Positions 1 through 20,795 of a DNA stretch of 52,979 bases are shown here, piece after piece (the stretch's first letter is position 1; the number at the start of each line of letters is the position of its first letter). The position numbers and the translations under genes are program-made. The stretch comes from Escherichia phage LF82-11. The notes below the pieces were generated by a model. The model did not search any database, was not told the origin of the DNA, and saw only the letters and a program-made list of their open reading frames with translations. Where the stretch lies: sequence record PV660454. One strand, given 5' to 3'.

Positions 1-555
1 ATGTCACATGAAGAAGATAACGAATGGAAAAGCACGAGCGGCGCAGCCAATGAAGCGATCAAGAAAGGGAACTTTAAAGCACTGTATAACAAGAAGTATG
101 GCGACTTGTTTACGGTTTCAAAAAACCATGCTTTCACGCCTGAGCAGCTTTTTGATATGGCTGTTAAATACTTCACCTGGGCGGAAGAGAACGCGCTTAA
201 AGCAGCGGAAACGGCAAGCTTTCAGGGCATTGTGACTGAGAACCTCGTGCATAAGGTGCGCGTATTCACCCTTAACGGACTGTGCCTATTTTGCGGAATC
301 ACAGCCAACGCGATCCACAACTGGCGCAAGCAACCCGGATTTGGTGACGTGGTGGAGTTTATCGACAACGTGATCTATGAGCAGAAATTCCAGCTTGCGG
401 CTAACGGCATCATCAACGCCAGCTTTATTGGCAAGGAGATCGGCATTGATAAAGCGCCGGAAATTAACGTTGCAGCGACGGCGGCGGCTTCTGTTTCAGC
501 GCCAACCACTGAGGAAGTTAAAGACGCGGTGCGTGATATCCTGGGGGAATTATGA
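1..555 (+). CDS. putative terminase small subunit (start may lie upstream of window)
   Basis: 184-aa ORF immediately upstream of and overlapping (ATGA) the large terminase; position-based call. Confidence 0.4.
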   Translation: MSHEEDNEWKSTSGAANEAIKKGNFKALYNKKYGDLFTVSKNHAFTPEQLFDMAVKYFTWAEENALKAAETASFQGIVTENLVHKVRVFTLNGLCLFCGITANAIHNWRKQPGFGDVVEFIDNVIYEQKFQLAANGIINASFIGKEIGIDKAPEINVAATAAASVSAPTTEEVKDAVRDILGEL

Positions 556-2141
556 TCCAGTGGGAAGACTTGACGGCGGCGCATAAAGCCGCCATTAAAG
601 CGATGAGTGAAACATCGTTCGAGAAGATGCTGCGGATCTGGTTCCAGTTATGCCAGGCGCAGAAGTTCCAAAGCAACTGGCACTTTACCTATCTGTGCTG
701 GAAGGTTGAGCAGATCATCAAGGGTGAGGCTCAAAACGTGATATTCAACATCACGCCAGGATCGGGCAAAACTGAAATCTTCTCTATCCACATGCCTGTT
801 TACGGAATGCTGAAGAGTCCGAAGGTTAGAAACCTAAACCTTTCGTTTTCCGATAGCCTCGTGAAAGATAACGGCATTCGCACGCGTGAGATCATCGGCT
901 CTGACGAATTCCAGGAGCTATGGCCTTGCAAGATGGCGAAAGCCAGCGGTGGAGATATCACGGCGCTAAACGACAACCAGAAAGCGTGGCTTACGCTAAC
1001 CTCCCGCGCCATTGGTGGGCAGGTAACGGGTAAGCGTGGCGGTTACATGGATGATCCTAACAAGCCGTGGGAGTTTACCGGGATGTTGACGCTTGACGAC
1101 CCGGATAAGCCAAAGGATATGTTTTCCGCGATCAAGCGCAAGGCCGCGCACACCTTGCTGAAGAACACCGTGCGATCGCGGCGAATGACAGACCGCACGC
1201 CATGTGTTGTGGTTCAGCAGCGCCTACACGTCAACGATTCAACATGGTTCTTGATGAATGGCGGTATGGGCGGTATGAAGTTTGAGCAGGTTATTATTCC
1301 GGCTCTCGTAACTGAGGAATATAGAGACACGCTTCCTGACTGGTTGAAAGAAGAGTTTGACAATGACGTTTTATCGTCCGATCCGGTCTATATTGACGGC
1401 GTGGCGCATTACTCGTTTTGGCCTGCAAAGGAAAGCGCTGAAAGCCTGTTAGCTTTGCGCGAAGCTGATCTCTACACGTTTGAATCTCAGTACCAGCAGA
1501 AGCCGATCGCGCTTGGTGGTAACGCGTTTAAAGCGGAATGGTTCAAGTATTACGGAGAAAGCGAGAAAGCTGATTTTCCAGTGCCTGACCGCTTCGAATA
1601 CCTGTTTACAACGGCTGATACCGCTCAGAAGGCCGAAGAGATTCACGACTTTTCAGTTTTCGTGTTGTGGGGTAAATATCGCGATCGAATCTATTTCGTC
1701 GATGGGATTCGCGGGAAGTGGGAGGCACCTGATCTGGAAAAGGCCGCGCTGGGCTTCTACAACGAGTCATTCCTGAAGGCTAAGAAGATGAAGGTTGCGA
1801 TCAGAAAGGTTTACATCGAAGACAAGGCGAGCGGAACGGGATTGATTCAGTCGATTAACAAGAAATTGCCGATCGACATTACGCCAGTTCAGCGAAACAC
1901 GGATAAGGTAACGCGAGCTATGGATGCAGCGCCGATACTCAAGTCCGGGCGAGTTGTATTCCCTGATGATCACCCAATGCTTACAGAAATGGAGGCGGAG
2001 TTGGTGGGGTTCACCTTCGACGATAGTCACCCTCACGACGATATAGTTGATAACGTGGTTGACGCGGCAAACTTCGAAATGAACTTGCTTGATGATCCGG
2101 TAGAGCGCATGAAACGCTTAGCAGGAATGAAGAAACAGTGA
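552..2141 (+). CDS. terminase large subunit
   Basis: 529 aa; Walker A-like PGSGKT near N-terminus; directly upstream of portal. Confidence 0.8.
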   Translation: MIQWEDLTAAHKAAIKAMSETSFEKMLRIWFQLCQAQKFQSNWHFTYLCWKVEQIIKGEAQNVIFNITPGSGKTEIFSIHMPVYGMLKSPKVRNLNLSFSDSLVKDNGIRTREIIGSDEFQELWPCKMAKASGGDITALNDNQKAWLTLTSRAIGGQVTGKRGGYMDDPNKPWEFTGMLTLDDPDKPKDMFSAIKRKAAHTLLKNTVRSRRMTDRTPCVVVQQRLHVNDSTWFLMNGGMGGMKFEQVIIPALVTEEYRDTLPDWLKEEFDNDVLSSDPVYIDGVAHYSFWPAKESAESLLALREADLYTFESQYQQKPIALGGNAFKAEWFKYYGESEKADFPVPDRFEYLFTTADTAQKAEEIHDFSVFVLWGKYRDRIYFVDGIRGKWEAPDLEKAALGFYNESFLKAKKMKVAIRKVYIEDKASGTGLIQSINKKLPIDITPVQRNTDKVTRAMDAAPILKSGRVVFPDDHPMLTEMEAELVGFTFDDSHPHDDIVDNVVDAANFEMNLLDDPVERMKRLAGMKKQ

Positions 2142-2148
2142 TATAATC

Positions 2149-2176
2149 AGCCGGGCTAATAACCCGGCTTTTTTAT
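2149..2176 (+). terminator. rho-independent terminator after terminase
   Basis: GCCGGG/CCCGGC stem followed by T6. Confidence 0.5.
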
Positions 2177-2189
2177 TGAGGAAATCGCT

Positions 2190-3506
2190 ATGACTAAGCA
2201 GAAAAAGCCCGTCAAAATGGACTCGTACAACGAGACATTCAAGGGCGCAGGTACAGACCGCGCGCACAGCGGCCTAAACTATTATTACAACGTCACGCAG
2301 TTCTACATTGACAACCCGCTAGCCCGTAAGATTATCGACGTTATACCGGAGGAAATGGTTTTTCCTGGGTTCGGTATCGACGGCGAAACGGATGAGAAGG
2401 AATTTAAATCCCGATGGGATGCGCTGAAGATGAACGAGCAGATTGTTGAAGCGTTTGCGTGGGAACGCCTTTACGGTGGCTCAGCAATCGTGGCTGTGAT
2501 CAATGACCGCCGCGCGCTCACTTCGCCAGCCAAAGAGGGTGCCCCGCTTGAGTCTATCCGAGTGTACGAAAAGGAGCAGGTCAAGATCCAGACGCGAGAA
2601 ACCAACCCGCGTAATGTTCGCTACGGTATGCCGAAGACGTACACCATCAACCCTGGTGGCTCTATGCCTGAGTACGAGATCCACTATTCGCGAATCTACA
2701 TCAACGATGGTGATCGCGTGCCCGGTTCGGTTCGCCGTCAAAATGAGGGGTGGGGTGCTTCCGTTCTTTCTCGCGGAATGATTGATGCCATCACGGACTA
2801 TGACTACTGCGAAGAGCTTGCAACTCAGCTTTTACGCCGTAAGCAGCAAGCGGTGTGGAAGGCTCGCGGCCTGGCTGATTTATGCGATGATGATGAAGGG
2901 CGCTACGCGGCACGAATCAGGCTTGCTCAGGTTGACGATAACAGCGGCGTTGGGCGTGCGGTTGGTATTGATGCCACGGATGAAGAGTACGAAATCTTGA
3001 ACTCCGATATCAACGGCGTTGACGCTTTTCTTGATAAGAAAATGGATCGCATCGTGAACTATTCCGGCATCCATGAAATCATCCTGAAGAATAAGAACGT
3101 GGGCGGCGTTTCAGCGAGCCAAAACACGGCGCTTGAGACATTCTACAAGATGATTGACCGCCGCCGTAACGAGCGATACAGGCCGCTTCTGGAGTGGTTG
3201 TTGCCGTTCATGATTCAAGAGCAAGAATGGTCTATCCGGTTCGACCCTCTCTCTATGCCGTCAGAGAAAGAACAGGCTGAGACATTCGAGCGTTACACCA
3301 ATGCGGTTGACAAGCTGATCACGAATCAGGCTATTGACACCGAAGAGGCGCGCGATACACTTGAATCTGTTTCTGATGTGCTCAAGCTGAAATCCGGCTT
3401 GCCGAAGTTGCCGCCGCGCGATAAGACTGGCAAAGATCAGCAGGGTAAAGAGAAAGTAACCACACTGCCAAAAGGGGCTACAGATGAAGGTTCAGGGGAT
3501 AGCTAA
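2190..3506 (+). CDS. portal protein
   Basis: 438 aa, gene order terminase-portal-head morphogenesis. Confidence 0.7.
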   Translation: MTKQKKPVKMDSYNETFKGAGTDRAHSGLNYYYNVTQFYIDNPLARKIIDVIPEEMVFPGFGIDGETDEKEFKSRWDALKMNEQIVEAFAWERLYGGSAIVAVINDRRALTSPAKEGAPLESIRVYEKEQVKIQTRETNPRNVRYGMPKTYTINPGGSMPEYEIHYSRIYINDGDRVPGSVRRQNEGWGASVLSRGMIDAITDYDYCEELATQLLRRKQQAVWKARGLADLCDDDEGRYAARIRLAQVDDNSGVGRAVGIDATDEEYEILNSDINGVDAFLDKKMDRIVNYSGIHEIILKNKNVGGVSASQNTALETFYKMIDRRRNERYRPLLEWLLPFMIQEQEWSIRFDPLSMPSEKEQAETFERYTNAVDKLITNQAIDTEEARDTLESVSDVLKLKSGLPKLPPRDKTGKDQQGKEKVTTLPKGATDEGSGDS

Positions 3507-4248
3507 ACAGTGGCGCTATCCAGAAGCAAGCGAGCGGGAATTATCCCGCTCTCTGGCAACGTTCGCGGGTGAGCTTATCGTGTTTGCTCGCGATCAACTG
3601 GATAAGATGAAGTTTGACGCTAGCGCCGATGAGATAGATCAGGCAGAAAGCGAGCTTGAAGATTACGCCGCGTATCTGATCGCAGGTCTGATGGCCTTGC
3701 TTCCATCGCTGGCGCTGAAGATTTACCGCTTCAACTCGCAGCAGTTTATTGATGTTGCCAAATCTGCTGGCGGGAAAAAGAATCCGGTTGTGGTTCTGCT
3801 TATCGCTCTGGGATATAACGCTAACGAGCCGTGGTATCGTGAGAAAGAAGATAACTGGCTATCTCTCACAGAGGCAAGTTATCGTAAGCTGGCGAATGAT
3901 ATCATTGCTGACTGGTCTAACACCGTAAGGATGGAAAACGCCAAAGGCAAGAGCCGTGAGTATATCGACGATGTGATTGAGCAGCGTTACAAGGTGTATA
4001 CTGGCTGGACGGTAAACAGATCTCGTGGAATCGTTGCGACTTGGAATAGTTTACTGATGCGCGCGCGCCTGGAAGATTCAGGAGTGACGCATTATTTTTG
4101 GCATGGTAAACTTGACGAACGCGAGCGCCTTAAGCACTTGTTATGGGAGAACAAACGAATCGCCATAAACAGCGATCACGTATTCCCAGGTGAAGAATAC
4201 GGTTGCCGATGCTGGGCAACTCCTGACTTTTACAATATCGAGGAATGA
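3484..4248 (+). CDS. head morphogenesis / minor head protein
   Basis: 254 aa directly after portal; Mu F / SPP1 gp7-like position. Confidence 0.45.
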   Translation: MKVQGIAKQWRYPEASERELSRSLATFAGELIVFARDQLDKMKFDASADEIDQAESELEDYAAYLIAGLMALLPSLALKIYRFNSQQFIDVAKSAGGKKNPVVVLLIALGYNANEPWYREKEDNWLSLTEASYRKLANDIIADWSNTVRMENAKGKSREYIDDVIEQRYKVYTGWTVNRSRGIVATWNSLLMRARLEDSGVTHYFWHGKLDERERLKHLLWENKRIAINSDHVFPGEEYGCRCWATPDFYNIEE

Positions 4249-5375
4249 AAATGACCACTAAACAACGCTATGATAGCGCACCAATCAAGGCACGATTCGA
4301 TTCAAACGGATATCTTCATGATGAGCCAATCATCGCGCGAATCGGCATTCAATCGTACATGAAACCAGATGGAACCATGCAGCGTGAATTTCGCCCGGCT
4401 AGCGAGGTATTCAGCGAGAAGTCAATGAAGTCTTTTCAAGGGATGCCGATTGTTGAAGGTCACAAGGAGATCACCGTTAAGAACGCGCGAGGTGAGGTTG
4501 TTGGCGCGGTGAGCGGAGCGGCGCGCCGTGACGGAATCGGCTTGCTGTGCCCGATCGTAATTCACGATGGTGAATCAATCGAAAGCGCCAAACGAGGCGA
4601 TGCTGCTGAATTATCCGTAGGCTACAAAACAAACGATATTCATCGCGCCGGGTGGGGCAACGTGGTTACTGGTGAGTACGTATTCAAAGACGATGCGGAA
4701 ATGATGGAGAAGATTTTCCCCAGCGGAACCACGATGAGTGACGAATGGGAAGAGTTCGACGTGCTTCAAACAAACATCGTGCCCAACCACATCGCGAAGG
4801 TTCACAAAGGCCGCGCCGGAATCGCTCGTTTAAACCTTGACGGCTCCGAGGAAATCAAGTACGATTCAAGCGTTGACAATCAACCATCAAAGGAAAATGT
4901 TATGACCGTTAAAATTAAGATCGACTCCGCAGAAGTGGAAGTAACACAGGATGTGGCAAACCACATCGAAGCGCTGAAGGCAACCGCAACGGCAGCCAAA
5001 ACAAAGGCTGATACTCTGGAAGCAGAGCGCGACTCACTGAAAGTTAAGGTTGACGGCCTCCCGGCACTGATTGAAGCCGCGATCGCCGAAGCGAAAACAA
5101 AAGCCGATGCAGAAAACGAAATCAAAACTTTCGCCACTGAAATTGGCGTTAAGTGTGACGGCCTGGATAACAAAGCGATTAAAGTTGCAGTTATCAAAGA
5201 GGTGTTAGGTATCGACGCAGCAGAGAAAAGCGATGCTTATATTGATCAGTCATTTGAAATCGCGCGCGATTCTGATAAGATGGCGGCTAATCGCGTTAAA
5301 ATCTCCGGCTCTAACGGCAAGGAAGACGGCGCTGATACTGGCATCCCTGATGCTCAGGCTCGTTTCCGCAAGTAA
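4245..5375 (+). CDS. scaffolding protein / prohead protease-like
   Basis: 376 aa; C-terminal Ala/Lys/Glu-rich predicted coiled coil; precedes capsid genes; alternative ATG at 4251 has better RBS. Confidence 0.4.
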   Translation: MKMTTKQRYDSAPIKARFDSNGYLHDEPIIARIGIQSYMKPDGTMQREFRPASEVFSEKSMKSFQGMPIVEGHKEITVKNARGEVVGAVSGAARRDGIGLLCPIVIHDGESIESAKRGDAAELSVGYKTNDIHRAGWGNVVTGEYVFKDDAEMMEKIFPSGTTMSDEWEEFDVLQTNIVPNHIAKVHKGRAGIARLNLDGSEEIKYDSSVDNQPSKENVMTVKIKIDSAEVEVTQDVANHIEALKATATAAKTKADTLEAERDSLKVKVDGLPALIEAAIAEAKTKADAENEIKTFATEIGVKCDGLDNKAIKVAVIKEVLGIDAAEKSDAYIDQSFEIARDSDKMAANRVKISGSNGKEDGADTGIPDAQARFRK

Positions 5376-5433
5376 TAAAACAAGCGGCTGAAATATGCCG
5401 CTTCACTCTCTCTGAAGAAAAGGAAAAATAATC

Positions 5434-5967
5434 ATGGCACTTATTCAAGCAAGCTACACCGTTCACCGTTCAAAGGCATACGCTGGTATGCACGCCGACA
5501 CCTCAGCTTACAACATCGACGGCACTTGCTGCGCTGGTGTTGACAAACTCCCGGTTGGCGTATTCGTCGCACTCGATCCGGCTGGCGGCGTTGTTGACGG
5601 TCACAAGGTAGTAACCAACGTTATCGACACTGCGGCAAGCAACCCTAATCTGGTTGGCGCAACTCTGATGAGCCACGCTTATTCACCTGAAGGTGTTTAC
5701 GATGAAGGTTCAGCAGTGAACGTAATGACCGCCGGGCGCATTTGGGTGCTGTGTGCTAAGTCTTTGGCTGATGCAAACAAGGCATTCAACGTTCAGGTTA
5801 ACATTAACGCAAAAGGTGAAGTTGTTAACCCTGGCTCCGGCGCAATCGGCACTGTTTACACCACCACTGGCGAATGGCTGAAGACTGACGATCCGAATTA
5901 CGACCTGATCAAGGTTCAGCTTACACAGGCTCAGTTCCAGCTTCCGGCATCCGGTGGCGGCGCGTAA
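5434..5967 (+). CDS. head-associated structural protein (function unknown)
   Basis: 177 aa between scaffold and major capsid, followed by terminator. Confidence 0.25.
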   Translation: MALIQASYTVHRSKAYAGMHADTSAYNIDGTCCAGVDKLPVGVFVALDPAGGVVDGHKVVTNVIDTAASNPNLVGATLMSHAYSPEGVYDEGSAVNVMTAGRIWVLCAKSLADANKAFNVQVNINAKGEVVNPGSGAIGTVYTTTGEWLKTDDPNYDLIKVQLTQAQFQLPASGGGA

Positions 5968-5974
5968 TTAAACA

Positions 5975-5998
5975 GGGAGCTTCGGCTCCCTTTTTATT
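5975..5998 (+). terminator. rho-independent terminator
   Basis: GGGAGC-ttcg-GCTCCC stem then T5. Confidence 0.5.
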
Positions 5999-6019
5999 TA
6001 TGTCTACCACAAAAAGATA

Positions 6020-6047
6020 TTGACCGTTTAGCAAAAAGTGCTATTAT
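6020..6047 (+). promoter_or_regulatory. sigma70-like promoter for major capsid gene with an embedded inverted-repeat box
   Basis: TTGACC, 16-bp spacer, TATTAT; spacer contains TAGCAAAAAGTGCTA. Confidence 0.5.
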
Positions 6048-6090
6048 TGACGCGTGACCTAATCACGCATTCAATCAAAAGGAAAATGTT

Positions 6091-7044
6091 ATGACCATGA
6101 AACTTGATTCATTCGAGCAGAACGAAATTACGGTAGGCCTTCGCAAGATGGGTGTTGCGGCAAGCAAAGCGGATCGCCTGGGTATCTGGACTGTAGAGCA
6201 GATGAAGCAGACGCTTAAGCGTCAGTATGAAGCGGCTTATCCCGAAACATCAGCGCTGGCGCTCTTCCCGGTTACAACCGAAATTGCACCAACAACCCGC
6301 ATCTTCGAATACATGAAGATTGACGGCGTGACCATGGCGAAAATCATCGCGGATTATACTGACGATCTGCCTCTGGTTGATGCGACCCATAGCCTGGAAA
6401 CAGGCCGCGTACACCGCCTGGGTAACGCGTGGATGATTTCCATTGACGAAATCAAAACTGGTGCGGCGCTGGGTTCTTCCCTGTCTGACCGCAAGGCAAC
6501 ACTGGCGCGCGAAGCGCACGAAACGCTGGTGAATACTCTGGTGTTCCAGGGTTCCAAGCCTCACAAAATTCTGTCTGTGTTCGACAACCCGAACATCACC
6601 CGCGTAACTTCAGCGGCTGGCGCGTGGGCTGACCCTGAAAAGGCAAGCGACGAACTGACGGATCTGATTGAGAAAATGGAAACCCTGACCAAAGGCAAGC
6701 ACAAGATCACCGATATTGTGATCCCGCCTTCTCAGCGTAAGATCCTGGCTAAGCGCATGCCGGAAACCACGATGAGTTACTTGCAGTGGTTTGAGTCTCA
6801 GAACGGCGGTATCACAATTAGCTCAATCTCTGAGCTTGAAGATATCGACGGCATCGGTACCAAAGGCATTCTTGCCTACGAGAAAGACCCGATGAACATG
6901 AGCATCGAGATCCCGGAAGCATTCAACATGCTCCCAATGCAGCCTAAAGACCTGCATTTCAAAGTGCCTTGTACGTCCAAGACTACTGGCCTGATCGTTT
7001 ATCGTCCTCTGACGATTATCTTGCTGGTTGGCGTAGGTAAGTAA
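6091..7044 (+). CDS. major capsid protein
   Basis: 317 aa, own strong promoter and terminator, position in head module. Confidence 0.55.
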   Translation: MTMKLDSFEQNEITVGLRKMGVAASKADRLGIWTVEQMKQTLKRQYEAAYPETSALALFPVTTEIAPTTRIFEYMKIDGVTMAKIIADYTDDLPLVDATHSLETGRVHRLGNAWMISIDEIKTGAALGSSLSDRKATLAREAHETLVNTLVFQGSKPHKILSVFDNPNITRVTSAAGAWADPEKASDELTDLIEKMETLTKGKHKITDIVIPPSQRKILAKRMPETTMSYLQWFESQNGGITISSISELEDIDGIGTKGILAYEKDPMNMSIEIPEAFNMLPMQPKDLHFKVPCTSKTTGLIVYRPLTIILLVGVGK

Positions 7045-7048
7045 GACG

Positions 7049-7080
7049 AAGCCCCTGATTAATTTCAGGGGCTTTTTTGT
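7049..7080 (+). terminator. rho-independent terminator
   Basis: AGCCCCTGA-ttaatt-TCAGGGGCT then T6. Confidence 0.55.
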
Positions 7081-7109
7081 TGACACGCTGCCGGAAAGTT
7101 TTGTATATT
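7080..7109 (+). promoter_or_regulatory. sigma70-like promoter
   Basis: TTGACA, 18-bp spacer, TATATT. Confidence 0.45.
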
Positions 7110-7147
7110 GACGGCTCACAAACAAGTAAACCAAAAGGTGAATTATC

Positions 7148-7414
7148 ATGGCTGCAAAGAAAAACGTAATGAAGAACATTGGCGCTTGCCTGGTGCGTAT
7201 CGGCATGGTGGATGTTAAGCCGAACGAAACGATTGAGCTGACAGACGAACAGCTAAATTCACAGGGTGTTAAATCCCTGCTACACCGTGAGGTTTTGGAG
7301 TTCGAAGATGATCCGAAGCGCACGCGTGAACTTCTCGAAGTGATTCGCAAGAAGGCGAAACCAAAAGAAGAGAAGACCATTGAACAGCGTGAGAAAGCGC
7401 CGGATATCGAATAA
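7148..7414 (+). CDS. small Lys/Glu-rich protein with own promoter and terminator
   Basis: 88 aa, RBS AAAGGTG; bracketed by promoter and terminator. Confidence 0.35.
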   Translation: MAAKKNVMKNIGACLVRIGMVDVKPNETIELTDEQLNSQGVKSLLHREVLEFEDDPKRTRELLEVIRKKAKPKEEKTIEQREKAPDIE

Positions 7415-7460
7415 CCGAAAGGGGGCGTAATGCTCCCTTTTTTTATACCTGGAGGAAACC

Positions 7461-7868
7461 ATGAACGAAGATGAAATGAAGATCGCAGAGATTATGCGAA
7501 AGCTTGCGCCAGCGCTAAAGAACGTGCCAGATCAGACGATTGTTGTTTGGATTAACCTTGCGGAAATGTTCGTGTGTGCCAATAAGTTTGGCGACAAGTA
7601 TCACCAGGCCGTCGCACTCTATACGATGCACCTGATGTTCCTTGATGGCGCGATGAAGGGCGAGAAAGAAACTCTTGAGAGTTATTCACGTCGTGTAACG
7701 TCATTCACTCTGAGCGGTGAATTTTCCACGAGCTACGGGGCAGTGACCGCCAATAATACCGGGCGATCAATCCATGATACGCCATGGGGCAAAATGTACG
7801 ATATTCTCAACAAGAAAAAAGGCGGCGGGTTCGGCCTGATTTCAGGAATCAGAGGTTGTGGGCGATGA
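7461..7868 (+). CDS. head-tail connector / adaptor-like
   Basis: 135 aa, first of four translationally coupled neck genes. Confidence 0.35.
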   Translation: MNEDEMKIAEIMRKLAPALKNVPDQTIVVWINLAEMFVCANKFGDKYHQAVALYTMHLMFLDGAMKGEKETLESYSRRVTSFTLSGEFSTSYGAVTANNTGRSIHDTPWGKMYDILNKKKGGGFGLISGIRGCGR

Positions 7869-8245
7869 TAAATTATGCAGAGATTCAGAATCTGACCGAT
7901 CAGGGGATCAACGCTTTTGCTGGTGATGGCGGAGAGTTCGACGTGATCTTAACTGGTGGCGGCGTGCGGGTTGGCGACGATGGAAAGGAAATTGTCGTGC
8001 CGCCTCGGATGGGCAAAGTGCATGGCGCGGTTCGTGCGATCTCCTATCGCTACATCGACGGCGAAAACATACGGTTCGGTGACAAGCGCGCATTCTTCTC
8101 GAACGTCACGCCGCTTGAGAATGGAATGATCGTAATCATCGACGGCGAGCACTGGCGCATAGTTGACACGCGCCCGGTTAACCCTACACAAACGCACGTT
8201 ATCGCATATCGTCCTATACTGCGAAAGGTTGCGGCTCATGTCTAA
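7865..8245 (+). CDS. head closure / head-tail joining-like
   Basis: ATGA overlap with upstream gene; start moved to internal ATG at 7865. Confidence 0.3.
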   Translation: MINYAEIQNLTDQGINAFAGDGGEFDVILTGGGVRVGDDGKEIVVPPRMGKVHGAVRAISYRYIDGENIRFGDKRAFFSNVTPLENGMIVIIDGEHWRIVDTRPVNPTQTHVIAYRPILRKVAAHV

Positions 8246-8681
8246 TTACCAGGTGCGCAAGTTTCACGGTGATATTTCTCGTTGGATTCTGCGCACTCAG
8301 AAGGGGCTAGAGGACGTGGTTAGAGAGTTCGTTAAATCGGTTCACGCGGAGCTTGTAAAGACCTCACCAGTAGATACAGGGCGATTCCGAGCTAACTGGC
8401 AGATAACCTATAACCACGTACCGCTATACGCTCTCAATGAGTACGACAAAACCGGAGAGAAAACGATCGCGTCAGGGGTTCGAATTGCAAACGCGTTGCC
8501 GTTGGGCAGAGGTGGCGCGGTTACTTCAATCTACTTTTCGAACATGTTAATCTATGCCAACGCGCTCGAATACGGGCATTCACGGCAAGCGCCAGCGGGT
8601 GTGCTGGGGTTGGTGGCGATACGCTTACGATCTCACATGGCGGCGGCGATTAAACAATCAAGGATTAAAAATGGTTTATGA
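8238..8681 (+). CDS. HK97 gp10-like tail completion / neck protein
   Basis: contains DTGRFRANW resembling the HK97 gp10-family signature; start set to ATG 8238. Confidence 0.45.
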   Translation: MSNYQVRKFHGDISRWILRTQKGLEDVVREFVKSVHAELVKTSPVDTGRFRANWQITYNHVPLYALNEYDKTGEKTIASGVRIANALPLGRGGAVTSIYFSNMLIYANALEYGHSRQAPAGVLGLVAIRLRSHMAAAIKQSRIKNGL

Positions 8682-9081
8682 TGATCTGGATATGTCAGAG
8701 GCGGCGCGCTCCGCTCTCTTCGCTGAGTTCAGGCCGCGATTCGCCATCATGGCTGAAAACGTGGATTTCACAGAGCCTAGCCAGGGTCAGACCTGGCTAA
8801 AGTTCGACTACATCCCGGCTGATAAGATCTACCGCACTATTGACCGCAAGTGCATTTCTTTGCTTGCCATGGTTCAGATCGGCATAGTGTTTGCGCCGGG
8901 CAAGGGCATGACTGAGGCGCGCACCATTGCGAAAGAGATTGCAAACTTTTTCAGTGATGGTAAAATTCTCAACGTGGGTTATGTTTATGAGGGCGCAAGT
9001 TCTAAACCCGTACAGAAATCAGAGCGCGGCTGGATGTTACCAGTACGCTTCACAATGCGATACGATGAAAAGGAGCAGTAA
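8671..9081 (+). CDS. tail terminator-like protein
   Basis: 136 aa immediately upstream of major tail protein; RBS AAGGA. Confidence 0.3.
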   Translation: MVYDDLDMSEAARSALFAEFRPRFAIMAENVDFTEPSQGQTWLKFDYIPADKIYRTIDRKCISLLAMVQIGIVFAPGKGMTEARTIAKEIANFFSDGKILNVGYVYEGASSKPVQKSERGWMLPVRFTMRYDEKEQ

Positions 9082-9083
9082 TT

Positions 9084-9764
9084 ATGGCACTTCCTAACGG
9101 TTCACAGGTCTTCATTGAGCAGACACGATCCATAACCGAAGTTGAAGCAACGAGCATCACCAACTCGAAAGAGCCAGTTGCGACGGTTGCCGATATTGGC
9201 GATCTGGTAAATGGTGATTACGTGCTGGTTCTCGAATCAGTATGGGCAGGTCTGAAAAACCGCGTCCTTCGCGTCAAGTCTATTGATGCGCTGAAGGTAA
9301 CTCTTGAGGGTGACGGCAGCACGGACACGAGCAACATCAACAAGTTCCCGGCTGGCGGCGCATCAACGCTGGTGAAGATCACAAGCTGGATTGAAATCCC
9401 ATGTATCAGCGACATCGCCAAAACTGGTGGCGAACAGCAGTTTTACACCAAGCAGTGTTTAGCTGATGAGCGAGAGAAGCAAACGCCAACCTTCAAGTCT
9501 GCAACGTCGATCGGCTACACGTTCGATTTCGACTACGCAAACCCGATTACTCAACTCCTGATCGGTTACGACGAAGACGGCAAAACCCGCGCGATGCGTA
9601 TGTTCGTTCCAAAGGCGAGCTACCCGATCCGCACCTTCTCTGGCGTGCCATCGTTCGACGATGTGCCAAACACGGTGATGAACGAAGACGAAACAACCGT
9701 CCTCAACATTTCCCTTGATGGCAAGTATACGCACATGAAGGAATATGTTGCACCGACACCATAA
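9084..9764 (+). CDS. major tail (tube) protein
   Basis: 226 aa, upstream of chaperone and tape measure, followed by strong terminator. Confidence 0.55.
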   Translation: MALPNGSQVFIEQTRSITEVEATSITNSKEPVATVADIGDLVNGDYVLVLESVWAGLKNRVLRVKSIDALKVTLEGDGSTDTSNINKFPAGGASTLVKITSWIEIPCISDIAKTGGEQQFYTKQCLADEREKQTPTFKSATSIGYTFDFDYANPITQLLIGYDEDGKTRAMRMFVPKASYPIRTFSGVPSFDDVPNTVMNEDETTVLNISLDGKYTHMKEYVAPTP

Positions 9765-9768
9765 TCCG

Positions 9769-9796
9769 AAGGGGGGCTATTGCTCCCCTTTTTCTT
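9769..9796 (+). terminator. rho-independent terminator
   Basis: GGGGGGC-tatt-GCTCCCC stem then T-run. Confidence 0.5.
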
Positions 9797-9840
9797 TTGT
9801 GATTTAATACGCGAAACACAACCAATCAGAGGATTTAATT

Positions 9841-10158
9841 ATGTCATTCAAAGTTAAACTGTCCGAGCGCCTCCCTGACTTCCCGCTTGATGTGAAATTC
9901 AACCTTCCGAACGGCACCGAGGCCGAAATTAAATTCACCGTCAAATCACTGAAGGCAAGCGAAGTTCAGGAGCTTTACACCAAGGCTGGCGAGGGCACTG
10001 GCGCTGAGTTCATTACCGCGCTGGCTACCGGGTGGAACCTGGAGGATGAATTTAACGAAGCCAACCAGAACGAGCTGGTAGACAGCTACCCGGCTGTAGT
10101 TCTTGCGCTGGTTTCCGCATACATGGAAGCGCTAGCGGGGTATCGAGCAAAAAACTAA
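9841..10158 (+). CDS. tail assembly chaperone (lambda gpG analogue)
   Basis: 105 aa directly upstream of tape measure; ends 3 nt after a slippery heptamer. Confidence 0.6.
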   Translation: MSFKVKLSERLPDFPLDVKFNLPNGTEAEIKFTVKSLKASEVQELYTKAGEGTGAEFITALATGWNLEDEFNEANQNELVDSYPAVVLALVSAYMEALAGYRAKN

Positions 10159-10469
10159 AAAGGGCAGTCGAGCTAATGTATCGACGAGTGCCCACAGAAG
10201 CAGAGCTTGCCGATTACGGCCTGACAATGGAAGATTACCTAAATGAAGACCCTGAGATCTTAGAGTTTGATTCAGAGCTTTATGCGTCATGGGAAATGTT
10301 TTGCGCGATGCAAACACAGTGGCGATCTTCCGGCGTTGGCGCAATTGGCCTTGATTATAACGTGTTGCCTATGTTGTTCCGAATCTATAAAATAGAAGAC
10401 GAAGAACTAGCCTTAAACGACGTGCGAATCATGGAAGCGGAAGCGCTGAAACGTATGCACAAAAAATAA
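9841..10469 (+). CDS. tail assembly chaperone frameshift fusion (gpGT analogue)
   Basis: -1 shift at 10149-10155 joins G ORF to downstream ORF with no intervening stop. Confidence 0.5.
10149..10155 (+). other. -1 programmed ribosomal frameshift slippery site A_AAA_AAC
   Basis: X_XXY_YYZ heptamer in frame of 9841..10158; the -1 frame is open through to ORF 10176..10469. Confidence 0.55.
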
Positions 10470-10490
10470 GCGCCTTCGGGCGCTTTTCTT
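10468..10490 (+). terminator. terminator-like hairpin between chaperone and tape measure genes
   Basis: AAGCGCC-ttcg-GGCGCTT then TTTTCTT. Confidence 0.4.
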
Positions 10491-10503
10491 ATATGGGGGT
10501 TTT

Positions 10504-13203
10504 ATGACCGAACAGTATGCAGGTTTGAGCCTTGAAGTTGACGTGTCGCAGGTTGACAAAGCTGCGGTTTCGCTTGAGAACTTCGCGAAGGCGAATGACA
10601 CGGCTGCGAAGGGTGTTGATAAGTTTATCAACCAGGAGCAGGTTGCACGCCAGAAACAAAAGGAATACGTAGAGGAGATCAAGAAGGGTAACGCCGAGTT
10701 TGCCAGGATCGAGAAGGTCATTGACCCGGCAGTGTCAAAGATCAAGCAATTGCAAACCGCTGGCGCAGATCTCGAAAAGCTATGGCAGAAAGGGCTTGTG
10801 CCTGATGAGCGCTTTTTCCAGTTGGGTGACGTTATCGACACTCAGATCGGGGCGCTGAAGAAGTCACAGCAAGCACTGACTGAGGAAGGCCGCGCAGCAC
10901 TGGAAAACGCGAAGGCGAAAGCACAGGCGCAACGTGACGGCGATCGCTTCATCAAGCAGTTGCAGGAGCAAGCCAACGCCGCAACCATGACCAAGACCGA
11001 GATCTTAGAAATGAAGGCCGCGCAGTTGGGCGTTACGGCACAGGCCGCGCCACTGATCGCAGCCATGAACAAGCAGACTAGCGCCATCAATCTTGCTGGC
11101 ATTTCGGCTGGGCAGTACAACCAGGCAATGCGAATGCTTCCGGCGCAGATCACGGACGTTGTGACTTCATTAGCATCAGGGATGCCTGTTTGGCTTGTTG
11201 CCATCCAGCAGGGCGGCCAGATCAAGGACAGCTTCGGCGGAATCGGTAACACGTTCAAAGTGTTGTTGTCTTACCTCAATCCGCTTAATGTTGGCATTGG
11301 CCTGACGGTTGGCGCGCTGGGCGCTCTCATCTTCCAGGTTGTGAAGGCTCGCGGAGAGATTACGGCAGCGCAGAAAGCCGTTGCAGAGTCATTGGGCATG
11401 ACTGGTGATTACGCCGATAAGCTGGCGTTAAACCTTCGCAACATTGCTGACGCTTCAAAGCAGACAGCAGAGGAGGCGGCTAAGGCTTTCATTTCCACGA
11501 AAGATAAAGCGGCAGAGGCACAGGCCAAACTGATTGATGTTGGTTTCAGCTACGACGAAGCGCGCCAGATGGTTGAGAAGTACAAAGGATCGTCTGATTT
11601 CACTTTCCTTAACACGGAGATTGAGCGCCATCGCCTTGAGGTGCTGGGCATTAAAGATGCGTGGAGTGATGCGGCTGAGGAAGTCAAGAACTACTACACC
11701 GGGGCGAAGGAAGGCAAGCAAAGCGTAGCGCTGGGCGGCGCGATTGACCCTATCATCAAGATCATCGAGCGTGCCAAAAATCTCCAGGTTGAGACTAACA
11801 AGGCGCGAATCGAAGGTAACAAGATCGTAAATGATACCGTCAACCTCGTTGAAAAAGAGTACCTTGCAAGCAACCGCGTTGCTGCGGCTAAGAAGGCTCT
11901 TACTGAGGCCGAGAAGTACGCGAAAACAATCGCGGCATCCGGCAACGCTGAGGCGATCAAGCAGTCGAAAGAGCTGATTGAGATTCGCAAGAAGGAGATC
12001 AAGCAAGCTGAGGAGGCTGAAGCGAAGAAGAACAAGCCTAAGAAAGTTTCACAGGGCGCAATTGTTCGATCGCCTGAAGAGCAGCTTGACAAAGAGCTTT
12101 ACACGCTCAAAGCTCAGTTGAAGGTGTTGCAGGAGCATCAAAACATCGGTGAGCGCATTTCAAGCCAGCGTAAATCATTGTGGAGCGTTGAGGCTCAGAT
12201 CTCAATCCTTCAGGAAGCGCAGAGTAAGCGCCGATTGTCGAATGAGGAAAAGGCGTTGCTGACGAGCCAGCAAAAGGTGCTGGCGATGGCTCAGGAGAAA
12301 GCGGAGTTAGGCGATCAGATTTTGGCTCAAGAGAAGTTAAACGCTCTTAATGACAAATCGCTTGCCTTTGTGATCCAAATGAACCAGTCAGCACAAGCCC
12401 TCAACGAAACACGCGCCATGTGCAACCGTGAGGCAGAGCGTGCGGCGGCGAAGGCTAAGATCACCTCTGATTACATGGCGCAGGGTGGCGGCAAGGATGA
12501 TGCAGCGTTGCAGAAGATGATCAAAGCACAGGACGACTACTACGCGGCTGAAGATGCGAAGCGTGCAGACTGGTTAGCCGGGGCGAAAAACGCCTTTGCC
12601 AACTACGGTGACGCGGCAACGGATATGTACTCCAACGTTGGGCAGATTGCCAGCAGCGCGCTTAACGGAATGTCAGATATGATGGCGGAGTTTCTCATGA
12701 CGGGCAAAGCCAACTTTGAGGACTTCGCGAAGAGCATCATCAGCCAGATCATTAAGATGATCACACAGATGGTAATCTTTAACAGCATTTCCGGCATGAT
12801 GGGCGGCGGCGGTTGGTCATTCGCTGGTGCTGGTTTCTCTGGTGGTGGCTACACTGGCGACGGCGGGAAGTATCAGCCAGCCGGAACGGTTCACCGTGGC
12901 GAGTTTGTCATGACCAAGGAAGCAACAAAGAGGATTGGCGTTGACAACCTGTATCGACTGATGCGAGGCTATGCTAACGGCGGTTATGTTGGCGGCTCAT
13001 CTTCCGGCACTGGTGCTGGCGGTAGCTTCGGCGGCGGATTCTCTCTGACGATTGGCAGCATCCCGGTTGACGTGAACAACGGAGGCGATCCGAAAGGCAT
13101 GGAGCAGGGAATTAAGGCAATCTTCCAGCAGATGATTCAGGAGTCATGCGCGCAGGGAGGAGAGGTTTACAACTTCATTCAACAGAAAACAGGAGCGGGT
13201 TAA
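10504..13203 (+). CDS. tape measure protein
   Basis: 899 aa, long coiled-coil-rich central region, Gly-rich C-terminus, position after G/GT. Confidence 0.85.
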   Translation: MTEQYAGLSLEVDVSQVDKAAVSLENFAKANDTAAKGVDKFINQEQVARQKQKEYVEEIKKGNAEFARIEKVIDPAVSKIKQLQTAGADLEKLWQKGLVPDERFFQLGDVIDTQIGALKKSQQALTEEGRAALENAKAKAQAQRDGDRFIKQLQEQANAATMTKTEILEMKAAQLGVTAQAAPLIAAMNKQTSAINLAGISAGQYNQAMRMLPAQITDVVTSLASGMPVWLVAIQQGGQIKDSFGGIGNTFKVLLSYLNPLNVGIGLTVGALGALIFQVVKARGEITAAQKAVAESLGMTGDYADKLALNLRNIADASKQTAEEAAKAFISTKDKAAEAQAKLIDVGFSYDEARQMVEKYKGSSDFTFLNTEIERHRLEVLGIKDAWSDAAEEVKNYYTGAKEGKQSVALGGAIDPIIKIIERAKNLQVETNKARIEGNKIVNDTVNLVEKEYLASNRVAAAKKALTEAEKYAKTIAASGNAEAIKQSKELIEIRKKEIKQAEEAEAKKNKPKKVSQGAIVRSPEEQLDKELYTLKAQLKVLQEHQNIGERISSQRKSLWSVEAQISILQEAQSKRRLSNEEKALLTSQQKVLAMAQEKAELGDQILAQEKLNALNDKSLAFVIQMNQSAQALNETRAMCNREAERAAAKAKITSDYMAQGGGKDDAALQKMIKAQDDYYAAEDAKRADWLAGAKNAFANYGDAATDMYSNVGQIASSALNGMSDMMAEFLMTGKANFEDFAKSIISQIIKMITQMVIFNSISGMMGGGGWSFAGAGFSGGGYTGDGGKYQPAGTVHRGEFVMTKEATKRIGVDNLYRLMRGYANGGYVGGSSSGTGAGGSFGGGFSLTIGSIPVDVNNGGDPKGMEQGIKAIFQQMIQESCAQGGEVYNFIQQKTGAG

Positions 13204-13550
13204 TGGCACTTGATATTTTTAAATGGTGCGTGCAGTTGCAGAATGGCGGTGGCGTGATGAGCGTCACCAACAATGACAGGCAAGTGCAGTTTGGCAACGG
13301 TTTCCGGCAGGTAGGATCTGCTGGGTTCAACACGGAGCGGCGAGAGTATGCGATCGTCTATTTCGGTGAGGACTGGCGCGAGGTTCGGCAATTCCTGCGA
13401 GATCACCGATTGAAACCTTTCGCATTCACGCCACCAGAGGACACGATCGGAATATTCTTGCTGAAGCCTGACACTCTGGCAACCGCACCAAAGGGTAAAG
13501 GTTTGCTTGAGGTAACTTGCACACTTGTAGAACAATTCACAGCAGCGTAA
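13203..13550 (+). CDS. minor tail protein (lambda gpM-like)
   Basis: TAATG overlap with tape measure stop; start set to ATG 13203. Confidence 0.5.
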   Translation: MALDIFKWCVQLQNGGGVMSVTNNDRQVQFGNGFRQVGSAGFNTERREYAIVYFGEDWREVRQFLRDHRLKPFAFTPPEDTIGIFLLKPDTLATAPKGKGLLEVTCTLVEQFTAA

Positions 13551-13590
13551 AATAAAGCCTCCTAACGGGGGCTTTTTTATTGGGGGTAAT

Positions 13591-14337
13591 ATGTCACCAG
13601 CATTTGAGAACGCACTAGCCAGTTTATACCCTGGCGAAATCATCACATTGATAGAGGTTGACGGCACCAAGTTTGGCGCGCAGGTCTACCGCTTCCACGG
13701 CGAAAACATCGCCTTTACTCCTGAAGAGATTCTTGCGGCTACTCAGCCGGGCGGAAGTCTTCAGCCGAAAACAATCACGTTCCAGGGTAACGAATACGGC
13801 GCGCGCCCGTTCGGGATTTCTGGCGTTAACTTCAACGGCAACGGCAAGGCAGGAAAGGTCACGCTCACGCTGTCAAACATTGATAGCCAGGTATCGGCGC
13901 TTATCCGCTCGTATAACGGGATGATGCAAGCGAAGGTCACTATCTGGATAACTCAGAAAGATTTGCTTGCCGACGATGGCACCGTTTCGCCAGGTGACTT
14001 CAGAAAGCTTGTGTACTTCATCGAGCGACCAAATTTTGTGGATCAGAACGTGGCGCGGTTCGAGCTTACCAGCCCATACGATATGGATGGCATCATGATC
14101 CCGGCGCGAATCACTCAGAGCGTTTGCTATTGGGCGCAGCGCGGTTGGTATCGCTCAGGTAAGGGTTGCAGCTACAACGGCAACCGATATTTCGATAAAG
14201 ACAACAATCCGACAGACGACCCAAGCCAGGACGTTTGCGCAGGAACAGCAACGGCGTGCAAGCTTCGCTTCGGCTCAGATCAGGAACTTGATTTCGGCGG
14301 TTGCGCAGTGGCTTCACTTGACAGAAGGAATCAATGA
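13591..14337 (+). CDS. minor tail protein (lambda gpL-like)
   Basis: 248 aa; C-terminal Cys cluster; gene order M-L-K-I-J. Confidence 0.6.
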   Translation: MSPAFENALASLYPGEIITLIEVDGTKFGAQVYRFHGENIAFTPEEILAATQPGGSLQPKTITFQGNEYGARPFGISGVNFNGNGKAGKVTLTLSNIDSQVSALIRSYNGMMQAKVTIWITQKDLLADDGTVSPGDFRKLVYFIERPNFVDQNVARFELTSPYDMDGIMIPARITQSVCYWAQRGWYRSGKGCSYNGNRYFDKDNNPTDDPSQDVCAGTATACKLRFGSDQELDFGGCAVASLDRRNQ

Positions 14338-15062
14338 TGTTACAGCCAAAAATTAAGATGGCAATCTTCGAACATGCGAAAGAGGTTTACCCGCACGAGT
14401 GTTGCGGCGTGGTGACTCAAAAGGGGCGAGTGCAGAAATATTGGCGAGTGGATAACGTACACTCTGATCCTGAAAATCATTTCCAGATGCATCCTGTGCA
14501 ATACGCCGAAATCGAAGACGACGCGGAGCTAACCACGATCGCCATCGTTCACAGTCACACAGGAGACGGTGCAACAACGCTACCGAGCGCGCACGACAAG
14601 TGCATAATGAATGAAATGCAAGTGCCATGGGTTATCGTTAGCTTGCCGGAGGGTGATTTGAGGGTTGTTAATCCAGAGTCAATCCCTCTGATTGGTAGAC
14701 CCTGGGCGCTTGGATCGTATGATTGCTGGGGGCTGGTGATGGCGTGGCACCGTGAGCAGGGCGTGATCTTGAATGACTTCAGAAAGCCCTACGAGTGGTG
14801 GAAGCCGGAGCATGGAGAAAACCTCTATCAAGAAAACTATCTTGCGGAGGGGTTCGTTGAAACAGGTAAAGATCCAGAGCCAGGGGATATGGTAATATTC
14901 CAGCTACAGGCTAACGTATGGAACCATGCGGGAATCTACGTGGGCAACAACCAAATCCTTCATCACGCATTCGGAAAGCTGTCAAGGCACGATATTTATT
15001 CTGGATGGTATCAGGATCACGCGGTAATGATTTGCAGACATAAGGACTTAAAACCATGCTGA
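14334..15062 (+). CDS. tail tip protein (lambda gpK-like, MPN/JAB + NlpC/P60)
   Basis: HSHTGDGATTLPSAHD JAMM-like motif; C-terminal YDCWGLV Cys-His peptidase-like region. Confidence 0.7.
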   Translation: MMLQPKIKMAIFEHAKEVYPHECCGVVTQKGRVQKYWRVDNVHSDPENHFQMHPVQYAEIEDDAELTTIAIVHSHTGDGATTLPSAHDKCIMNEMQVPWVIVSLPEGDLRVVNPESIPLIGRPWALGSYDCWGLVMAWHREQGVILNDFRKPYEWWKPEHGENLYQENYLAEGFVETGKDPEPGDMVIFQLQANVWNHAGIYVGNNQILHHAFGKLSRHDIYSGWYQDHAVMICRHKDLKPC

Positions 15063-15649
15063 AGACGATTAAACTTTCAGGCTCGTTGGGCAAACGCTTT
15101 GGCGTATTCCACAAATTTTGCGTAGACAGCTACCCGGAGGCAATTCGGGCGCTTTCATCCCAGGTTGAAGGATTTAAGGAATACATGCAAAGCGAGGTTG
15201 GATCGCGAATGAGCTACGCAATTTTTGTGGACGGCAAGAACATTGGCGCTACGGATGAGCACGCCTTCGCCATCGCGAAAGAGATTCGCATCATCCCGGT
15301 TCCGACTGGCTCAAAATCTGGCGGACTGTTTCAGATTGTGGTTGGCGCTGTGATCATGGTTGCGGCATTCTATACTGGCGGAGCGTCGCTGGCGCTAATG
15401 GGAACGTTCGCAACGTCAGCTTTCATGATGGGCGGTGCAATGGTGCTGGGCGGCGTGATGCAGATGATCTCACCGCAGCAGGGCGGAATGAAGATGGAAA
15501 TGCAGAGCAGCAAGAACAAGCCATCATACGCATTCGGCGGAGCAGTAAATACCACGGCGGCTGGCTATCCTTTGCCGCTACCATACGGACGACGAACGAA
15601 CGGCGGCGCGGTGTATTCAGCCGCGAGTGTTGCCGAAGATATGAGCTAA
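15056..15649 (+). CDS. tail assembly protein (lambda gpI-like)
   Basis: 197 aa with hydrophobic Gly/Ala-rich C-terminal half, between K and J. Confidence 0.55.
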   Translation: MLKTIKLSGSLGKRFGVFHKFCVDSYPEAIRALSSQVEGFKEYMQSEVGSRMSYAIFVDGKNIGATDEHAFAIAKEIRIIPVPTGSKSGGLFQIVVGAVIMVAAFYTGGASLALMGTFATSAFMMGGAMVLGGVMQMISPQQGGMKMEMQSSKNKPSYAFGGAVNTTAAGYPLPLPYGRRTNGGAVYSAASVAEDMS

Positions 15650-15653
15650 CAGA

Positions 15654-15679
15654 AGCCCGCCTTGCGCGGGTTTTTTTTC
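15654..15679 (+). terminator. rho-independent terminator
   Basis: GC-rich stem then T8; TATAAT follows at about 15685. Confidence 0.5.
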
Positions 15680-15726
15680 GCCTGTATAATGGGTTCTTCT
15701 ATAAACCGCACGAAAAGGTAAACACA

Positions 15727-19278: not shown

Positions 19279-19283
19279 TAGAA

Positions 19284-19312
19284 AAGGGAGCCTTGCGGCT
19301 CCCTCTTTTTTT
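19284..19312. terminator. bidirectional terminator
   Basis: GGGAGCC-ttgc-GGCTCCC flanked by T-runs on both strands; between convergent genes. Confidence 0.5.
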
Positions 19313-19643: not shown

Positions 19644-19717
19644 TGGTGTTTCCTCGATTCGTTTATTTAAATTGATTATATCCACCAATCAGGGCGCGTG
19701 CTTAGCAATTCGTGCTA

Positions 19718-20677: not shown

Positions 20678-20795
20678 AATGCCACCTCGTGAGTTTGTTT
20701 GATTGAGTGCAAATAATACACCAGCGAGCAGACAAAATCAAAGTCAACATGTCGTTCCTGTAGTTAGCTGTTAAGAAAATCACTTTCCGGCGATT

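Follow-up and report, generated by a model that had tools for sequence, protein, structure and literature searches.

The marbox is an asymmetric site for MarA, SoxS and Rob, the monomeric AraC-family regulators of Escherichia coli. At class II marbox promoters, a forward site near −41 precedes a canonical −10 element with no recognisable −35 element, and the activator displaces sigma region 4 from the −35 position (PMC10268841, PMC8811837). At E. coli pbpG, a promoter with its marbox in the spacer, repression by MarA, SoxS and Rob is direct (PMC12052159). In phage TLS, a re-annotation described 21 copies of a 21-nt direct repeat, aaATAGCACnnnTTGnTAAAA, about 76 nt before start codons, noted similar repeats in T1, Rtp and Rogue1, and offered stoperators, enhancers or UP elements as guesses at their function (PMC11447400). 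The same study found only three sigma-70-like promoters, and its Table S1 lists, without comment, minus-strand copies in the structural region (DR7, atatagcattttttgttaaac) and near the tail fibre (PMC11447400). Here we analysed the 52,979-nucleotide sequence of Escherichia phage LF82-11 (PV660454; the whole stretch is hereafter the window), in which this repeat stands before early and middle gene cassettes and, inverted, inside the promoter of the major capsid gene. By its sequence the repeat is a marbox, a predicted site for MarA, SoxS or Rob. We put at roughly 55% the probability that a single factor, most likely one of these host proteins, would activate the early promoters and repress the capsid promoter. 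Gene annotation was drawn from PV660455.1 (Escherichia phage LF82-12), which is identical to the window over all 52,979 bases. The phage is a T1-like siphovirus whose nearest named relative is vB_EcoS_NBD2 (Vilniusvirus, Drexlerviridae).

An earlier note on this DNA, made from the letters alone, had placed a sigma-70 promoter (TTGACC, 16 bp, TATTAT) before the major capsid gene, with the reverse complement of the early-module box in its spacer, and our reading of the sequence bears this out (Table 1). The promoter also carries a TG at 6039–6040 (−15/−14), which makes its −10 an extended one, and its consensus score in a promoter scan was 10/12. Consensus-type matches were not more frequent in positions 1–20000 than in shuffled sequence (19 versus 17.4), so the reality of the capsid promoter rests on its intergenic position and its conservation. 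The structural module has few intergenic gaps, and this promoter occupies one of them, right after the terminator of the preceding gene. The inverted 15-bp box, TAGCAAAAAGTGCTA (6029–6043), overlaps the first two bases of the −10. It forms part of a backward 20-bp marbox, ATAGCACTTTTTGCTAAACG, whose ends fall on the last base of the −35 and the third base of the −10, a span of about −29 to −10, and which has no mismatch to any of three published marbox definitions.

The 15-bp box occurs in the window in 15 copies with at most two mismatches, against 0.07 expected; the early copies are all oriented with transcription, and the capsid copy is their reverse complement. With its conserved flanks, the element spans 20 bp, aATAGCAC-nnn-TTGYTA-AAAc (phage consensus ATAGCACTTTTTGCTAAAAC). 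Its identity as a marbox was checked against published sequences. A 15-mer derived by chromatin immunoprecipitation (ChIP), GCANNWWNTGNNAAA (PMC12052159), has 22 exact copies in the window where 0.88 are expected, and a second ChIP-derived 15-mer, GCAHWWWWTGYYAAA (PMC6900184), has 17 where 0.02 are expected; the capsid copy matches both exactly. For the 20-bp site, PMC2064960 quotes the consensus AYNGCACNNWNNRYYAAAYN and gives the definition AYNGCACNNWNNRYYAAAY, which 23 sites in the window fit with at most one mismatch (1.09 expected). The phage consensus is identical to the E. coli mar marbox ATGCCACGTTTTGCTAAATC at 16 of 20 positions and also resembles the micF marbox ACAGCACTGAATGTCAAAAC (host sequences from PMC8279559).

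A position table of 91 sites from four phages (LF82-12, NBD2, TH30 and T1) showed that the motif departs from two-fold symmetry. G4, present in 91 of 91 sites, is opposed by C or T at position 14, and C7 is set opposite T11; A stands in the flank on either side, and the conserved flanks A1 and AAA(C) are one-sided. Each of the asymmetric features, A1, C7, Y14 and AAA16–18, is specified by the marbox consensus. The strongly conserved A-box (GCAC) and B-box (AAA) lie about 7 bp apart, as in an oriented marbox, and CACG-7 nt-AAA is consistent with the contacts of MarA helices 3 and 6 (PMC8811837). The box is without variation across the phage family. Other identities were tried and rejected. A sigma-54 promoter (TGGCAC-N5-TTGCW) does not fit, as the box has AG rather than GG and the spacing of TAGCAC-N3-TTGC is 2 bp short; the position of the −10 hexamer, 22 nt after the 15-bp box, is likewise contrary to such a promoter. 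TTGYTA was rejected as a −35 element because its distance to the −10 is 22 bp. An UP element, an A/T-rich tract at −59 to −38 that alpha-CTD reads in the minor groove and that has no conserved G/C, was rejected because the site lies at −50 to −31 and G4, C5, C7 and G13 vary little or not at all.

About two dozen intergenic gaps of some 70 nt share a single layout, in which the box is followed after 22 nt by a TATAAT-like hexamer, and then come a CA-rich leader, a ribosome-binding site and the ATG. Upstream of a −10 hexamer we counted 23 forward marboxes (Table 1), with a gap of 18 bp in 19 of them, 17 bp in two and 19 bp in two. The −10 hexamers match TATAAT at 4–6 of 6 positions, and the mean match to TTGACA at 17-bp spacing, 1.43 of 6, is that of random sequence. 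The genes behind these promoters are the early and middle cassettes, which include replication, recombination and nucleotide kinase genes and many small genes. On these features the early and middle promoters are class II marbox promoters, with a putative dependence on an activator. On the E. coli K-12 genome, we measured for micF the marbox ACAGCACTGAATGTCAAAAC, 18 bp, TAGAAT and 7 nt to the annotated +1. The 23 phage promoters are built alike, with a forward 20-bp marbox centred near −41, 18 bp, a canonical −10 and no −35. They differ from host class II promoters in belonging to a virulent phage, in their density (23 per 53 kb) and in being nearly all of full consensus, whereas host marboxes are degenerate. 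Unlike sites of the micF type, many of them also share bases with the stop codon of the preceding gene and have a hairpin in the 18-bp gap.

These hairpins were stable, between marbox and start site, in 19 of the 23 promoters (z < −2 relative to shuffles, mean z −3.7). They often hold the −10 in the loop or 3′ arm (for example 45858–45900, 46945–46987 and 36870–36900), and in a few cases a T run comes next (for example at 37388 and 49195). Their appearance is that of terminators of the preceding cassette overlapping the next promoter, whose transcripts would begin inside or past the hairpin. The upstream stop codon falls inside the marbox in 16 of the 23, usually as the TAG of aTAGCAC (for example 30108–30110, 33112–33114, 43828–43830, 45844–45846 and 50987–50989), so that gene ends and promoter sites are fused. 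The first 15–20 transcribed bases are conserved and CA-rich (ACACCAACAA or CATCGAAACGAA; for example 40190–40209 and 43073–43095), and this start of the leader is common to NBD2, TH30 and T1; it may be a translational enhancer or a requirement on the initial transcribed sequence.

The capsid copy, being backward and in the spacer, is not of the micF type. Like the pbpG site, it lies within a sigma-70 core promoter, and the tail-fibre copy described below lies over a start site. We read the pbpG promoter as TTGACG-ATCGCACTTTTTGCTCGT-TATGAT; its marbox is forward and lacks the AAA, whereas the phage site is backward and of full consensus. The core of the E. coli rob promoter, CAGCAAAAAATGCTATTAT, is identical at 17 of 19 positions to the capsid core of Nouzillyvirus, TAACAAAAAATGCTATTAT. 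MarA reportedly represses rob through a backward marbox between the hexamers, a finding attributed to Schneiders and Levy in 2006. All copies in the window fit the sequence of the TLS repeat. The rule given for its orientation and distance fails for the capsid and tail-fibre copies: both are inverted, and the capsid copy lies 47 nt from the ATG. The TLS study makes no mention of a marbox, of a fixed spacing to the −10 or of an inverted copy in the capsid promoter (PMC11447400), and in our literature search no paper linked the repeat to the marbox or phages to marboxes, or reported the fixed spacing or the inverted capsid copy.

The capsid arrangement is present in NBD2, KLB19, HazelMika, TH30, TH27, XT34, P817, p111, Ec_L1, KMI8 and T1, and in IMG/VR contigs of about 50 kb. 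The 15-mer is kept with at most one mismatch in 47 of 74 distinct capsid-upstream sequences, and 31 of 33 distinct promoter cores, drawn from several genera, have the 20-mer with at most two mismatches and without exception in one register. G13, T15, A16 and A17 are invariant in these 31 cores, and the N positions vary (TTT or GAA). The invariant bases sit in the spacer beside the −35, where sigma-70 has no sequence requirement. The earlier note had proposed that the inverted box could couple late capsid expression to the factor that drives the early modules. The full-consensus site, its fixed register and the invariant spacer bases of the B-box support that proposal in part; the note had given neither the identity of the box nor the sign of the effect, and we infer the coupling itself from sequence.

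Two further claims of the note were that the capsid copy is the only one in the structural region and the only one in an operator-like position. The former holds within 1–19278 at up to two mismatches and fails for a diverged copy, ACCGCACGAAAAGGTAAACA, in the leader of the tail-tip gene J. The latter is wrong, as other copies lie at the tail-fibre start, in the J leader and in the regulator leader (27546–27560). A box at 26007–26021 that had been called an orphan covers the start site of the tail-fibre promoter, and the gene names given around it, near 26 kb, are corrected in Table 1. The tail-fibre marbox at 26006–26025 (plus strand ATAGCACGAATTGCTAAAAC) covers about −4 to +16 and starts 2–5 nt after the extended −10, a layout conserved in NBD2, T1, TH30, TH27 and K50PH164C1. 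The J-leader marbox lies at about +9 to +28, overlapping the ribosome-binding site, and reads aaATAGCAC in T1 and NBD2 and ACCGCAC in LF82-12. The helicase promoter and that of the gene for a Cro-like regulator are set face to face, with overlapping −10 hexamers, and the marbox at 27545–27564 is at once the class II site of the helicase gene and at about +13 to +32 in the divergent regulator leader. Elsewhere, copies precede late genes in T1 (terS and the tape-measure chaperone), and one lies over the portal promoter of K50PH164C1. The copies follow one pattern, with forward copies at −41 ahead of early genes and copies over a core promoter or leader belonging to late genes and the regulator.

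Promoters of the late region mostly consist of a terminator followed by an extended −10 without a −35 (52939–52950, 2138–2150, 15681–15693 and 26028–26037). Their extended −10 elements are TGgTATAAT (terS), TGaTATAAT (portal), TGTATAAT (J) and TGaTATAAT (tail fibre), and within the late region a consensus −35 is found only in the capsid promoter and in a promoter at 7080–7109.

Together with the host precedents, the sequence, geometry and conservation of these sites give good support to the following predicted mechanism. An activator bound at the early marboxes would replace −35 recognition and recruit RNA polymerase at the 23 promoters. The capsid gene has a putatively strong host-type promoter of its own, with TTGACC, the TG of an extended −10 and TATTAT. 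Since a protein bound in the spacer should obstruct RNA polymerase, the activator of the early promoters would, on the backward marbox, hold the capsid promoter down. We infer repression here from the position of the marbox. Because the box is a marbox, the early promoters are of class II type and a spacer marbox is repressive at pbpG, the expected coupling is early genes on and capsid off. The copies at the tail-fibre start and in the J and regulator leaders should likewise repress. If the host factor is already there at infection, the capsid promoter would be closed from entry onward. Release late in infection could follow from titration of the factor by replicating phage DNA, at about 27 sites per genome, or alternatively from its decay after host shut-off, when the unstable MarA and SoxS would disappear. 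That the Drexlerviridae run a complete temporal programme of this kind on a host stress regulator, whether pre-existing or induced, with about 23 class II promoters on, the capsid, tail-fibre, J and regulator promoters off, and late release by titration or shut-off, is a more tentative proposal, to which we give rather less than even odds.

Several points weigh against a host factor that switches early and capsid promoters in this way. In unstressed cells most Rob is sequestered and there is little MarA or SoxS, yet T1 thrives in rich medium. We know of no report that rob, marA or soxS matters for T1-like phages, and our literature search found no binding, start-site, transcript-mapping or expression data for Drexlerviridae. 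A TG extended −10 is present in 12 of the 23 early promoters, which might conceivably function without an activator. The complement of the A-box half, GTGCTAT, supplies the TG and the TAT of the capsid −10, so conservation of the capsid copy is partly explained by the promoter itself. In one clade, which accounts for 27 of the 74 distinct capsid-upstream sequences, GCAC has become TCAC (GTGC to GTGA), and the capsid site can therefore decay or be lost. This clade comprises the IMG/VR loci L047–L073, L104 and L110, with a capsid protein 68% identical and the promoter kept (−10 TATTCT); its marbox is probably weakened or lost. Finally, the phage's own helix-turn-helix (HTH) regulator gene lies directly beside a box, and the TAGCA-N5-TGCTA core is a perfect palindrome in 11 copies, which would suit a dimer.

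The last two points make the phage protein a serious rival, if on balance a doubtful one. The Cro-like HTH protein (27074–27532) would bind the near-palindromic core as a dimer, the likeness of the box to a marbox being convergent; made at once from its sigma-70 promoter, it would activate the 23 promoters from about −41 and repress the capsid, tail-fibre and its own promoters. Its divergent arrangement is typical of autoregulators, the TTGAxx-17-TATAAT promoter with a box in the leader is conserved in NBD2, KLB19, T1 and K50PH164C1, and the protein is restricted to this phage family yet present throughout it. An AlphaFold2 (AF2) model with a predicted local distance difference test score (pLDDT) of 88 shows an all-alpha Cro-type fold with a single HTH and a C-terminal extension, resembling the dimeric operator binders Xfaso-1 Cro and N15 Cro; a sequence search of solved structures with the regulator gave no match. 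Against this protein, the conservation of the motif departs from two-fold symmetry and its flanks A1 and AAA(C) are one-sided, all 23 activating copies share one orientation, and the first half of the recognition helix (residues 66–71) varies between genera although the box is identical. A capsid promoter free at time zero and repressed later would be odd for a late gene, and the exact micF spacing would require a coincidence. The variable recognition helix, the asymmetry of the motif, its strict orientation and the micF spacing favour the host proteins over the phage protein. Invariant residues of the regulator are confined to a disordered N-terminal arm (DKRTxNGNNGTxRG), to helix 1 and to the C-terminal part. 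Residues 5–24, predicted to be disordered (DKRTxNGNNGTxRGxDxxxR), are the most conserved part, and this peptide would be more typical of a protein–protein contact motif than of a DNA reader. We found no AraC/MarA homologue in the phage at E < 0.2, either in Pfam scans of 20 proteins or when MarA, SoxS and Rob were the queries for tblastn and phmmer. The promoters served by Mu Mor and C and by T4 MotA/AsiA also combine a good −10 and no −35 with a protein site over the −35 region. Unlike the proposed host factor those proteins are phage-encoded, their sites differ from the phage box in sequence and position (the MotA box is centred near −30), and no homologue was found here.

We consider it improbable that the capsid copy is no operator at all and survives as a relic of an inverted early module, kept for its TG, its part of the −10 and its A/T-rich spacer. 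Such a relic would agree with what GTGCTAT contributes to the promoter (TG at −15/−14 and TAT), with the loss of the A-box G tolerated in one clade and with the weak minus-strand hexamers that start with TA 22 nt past the box (TAGACA here, TATACA in T1). It leaves the B-box bases G13, T15, A16 and A17 without a sigma-70 role, yet these are the bases that stay invariant while the N positions vary, and several genera have independent copies that overlap other late core promoters or leaders. Very unlikely, in our judgement, is a role of the repeats as roadblocks of the stoperator kind, as UP elements or as enhancer sites, the options raised for TLS (PMC11447400). They are asymmetric, intergenic and oriented with transcription, like the stoperators of mycobacteriophage L5; the fixed 18-bp spacing to a −10 with no −35, the conserved G/C (GCAC, TG) at −50 to −31, unfit for an A/T-rich UP element, and the exact marbox matches argue against this. 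An antisense early-type promoter directed by the capsid box was also rejected. The minus-strand hexamer 22 nt past the box, TAGACA, lacks the T at −7, as do its unconserved counterparts in T1 (TATACA), NBD2 (TAGCTA) and TH30 (TAAGCG), and an antisense transcript is further disfavoured since it would at once meet the bidirectional terminator at 5974–5991.

The coordinates of these promoters and of the genes around them are collected in Table 1. The capsid leader begins with a hairpin that is present in relatives with other stems, GCCGTGA/TCACGGC in T1-like contigs and GGCTGTT/AACAGCC in others (T1, locus L013, about 15096–15122; other relatives, loci L074–L109). In many relatives a T run follows it, giving it the appearance of a terminator, and it may block read-through from upstream while sparing transcripts begun inside the hairpin. 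Two large divergent intergenic regions (20678–21176 and 41599–42307) contain canonical sigma-70 promoters: TTGACA-16-TATACT (exoVIII), TTGATT-17-TATTAT (20378–20677) and TTGACT-17-CATTAT (42308). They also contain A/T-rich TATATA tracts, four tandem GTGAT units (41797–41812) and a 17-bp repeat, GATACACGCAACTACAG (20798 and 21015), and are candidate immediate-early control regions or origins. A cluster of repeats of the GGAATAAT/ATTATTCC type at 41675–41760 adjoins the outermost minus-strand promoter, with similar clusters in T1 (about 48750–48800) and KLB19; it may be a binding array for another factor.

Table 1. Positions of the promoters, genes and other elements of the window (class II-type promoters are putative; bp, gap between marbox and −10)
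Feature	Position	Strand	Details
Major capsid promoter	6020–6047	+	−35 TTGACC 6020–6025, 16-bp spacer, −10 TATTAT 6042–6047
Backward 20-bp marbox of capsid promoter, ATAGCACTTTTTGCTAAACG	6025–6044	−	0 mismatches to AYNGCACNNWNNRYYAAAYN; contains 15-bp box 6029–6043
Hairpin at 5′ end of capsid leader	6052–6068	+	GCGTGA-cctaa-TCACGC
Major capsid protein gene	6091–7044	+	Pfam Major_capside, E 8e-46; PV660455.1: major head protein
Cement/decoration protein gene	5434–5967		Pfam Phage_cement
Intrinsic terminator of cement/decoration gene	5974–5991	+	directly 5′ of capsid promoter
Tail-tip J promoter	15681–15724	+	TATAAT 15685–15690; diverged forward marbox ACCGCACGAAAAGGTAAACA at 15705–15724
Tail fibre gene	23533–25983	−	annotation
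Tail-fibre promoter	26006–26037	−	cTGaTATAAT, −10 at 26028–26033, then backward marbox
Primase gene	26083–27018	−	annotation
Cro-like HTH transcriptional regulator gene	27074–27532	−	152 aa; only annotated DNA-binding protein
Sigma-70 promoter of regulator gene	27576–27611	−	TTGATG 27606–27611, 17 bp, TATAAT 27583–27588
Class II-type promoter for 19311–19643	19675–19718	−	marbox, 18 bp, TATAAT
Class II-type promoter, Erf gene	22232–22274	+	marbox, 17 bp, TATAAT
Class II-type promoter, primase gene	27053–27097	−	AAAGCACGAAAAGCTAATCA, 19 bp, CATAAT
Class II-type promoter, helicase gene 27625	27545–27587	+	marbox ATAGCATTTTTTGTTAAAAC, 17 bp, TATTAT
Class II-type promoter, methyltransferase gene 30181	30107–30150	+	18 bp, CATAAT
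Class II-type promoter for 31172	31100–31143	+	18 bp, TATTAT
Class II-type promoter for 33184	33111–33154	+	18 bp, TATACT
Class II-type promoter, DNA helicase gene 35256–36842	36870–36914	−	19 bp, TATCAT
Class II-type promoter for 36918–37334	37364–37407	−	18 bp, TATTAT
Class II-type promoter for 38793–39017	39048–39091	−	18 bp, AATAAT
Class II-type promoter for 39667–39891	39923–39966	−	18 bp, CATAAT
Class II-type promoter for 39966–40172	40210–40253	−	18 bp, TATTAT
Class II-type promoter for 41359–41598	41630–41673	−	18 bp, TATAGT
Class II-type promoter for 43104	43029–43072	+	18 bp, CATAAT
Class II-type promoter for 43901	43827–43870	+	18 bp, CATACT
Class II-type promoter for 44569	44496–44539	+	18 bp, CATAAT
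Class II-type promoter for 45481	45405–45448	+	18 bp, TATCAT
Class II-type promoter for 45927	45843–45886	+	18 bp, TATAGT
Class II-type promoter for 47012	46930–46973	+	18 bp, TATAGT
Class II-type promoter for 47787	47713–47756	+	18 bp, TATCAT
Class II-type promoter for 49268	49195–49238	+	18 bp, TATTCT
Class II-type promoter for 50046	49972–50015	+	18 bp, TATAAT
Class II-type promoter for 51063	50986–51029	+	18 bp, TATAGT

T1-like phages are among the commonest coliphages, and for decades there has been no clear picture of how their transcription is organised. If the repeat is a marbox, every cassette would have a promoter of a kind already known and structurally characterised, and there would be a concrete early/late switch with its clearest repressive case at the capsid promoter. 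Were the Cro-like protein the reader of the site, it would count as a new activator, one convergent on the marbox and on class II geometry. Should the whole temporal programme run on a host stress regulator, infection by T1-like phages would be tuned directly by bile salts, salicylate, oxidants and some antibiotics. If a host factor is involved, the mar/sox/rob regulon of antibiotic resistance and stress would become one determinant of phage growth. This would bear on phage–antibiotic combinations and on the behaviour of phages in the gut, where bile salts activate Rob.

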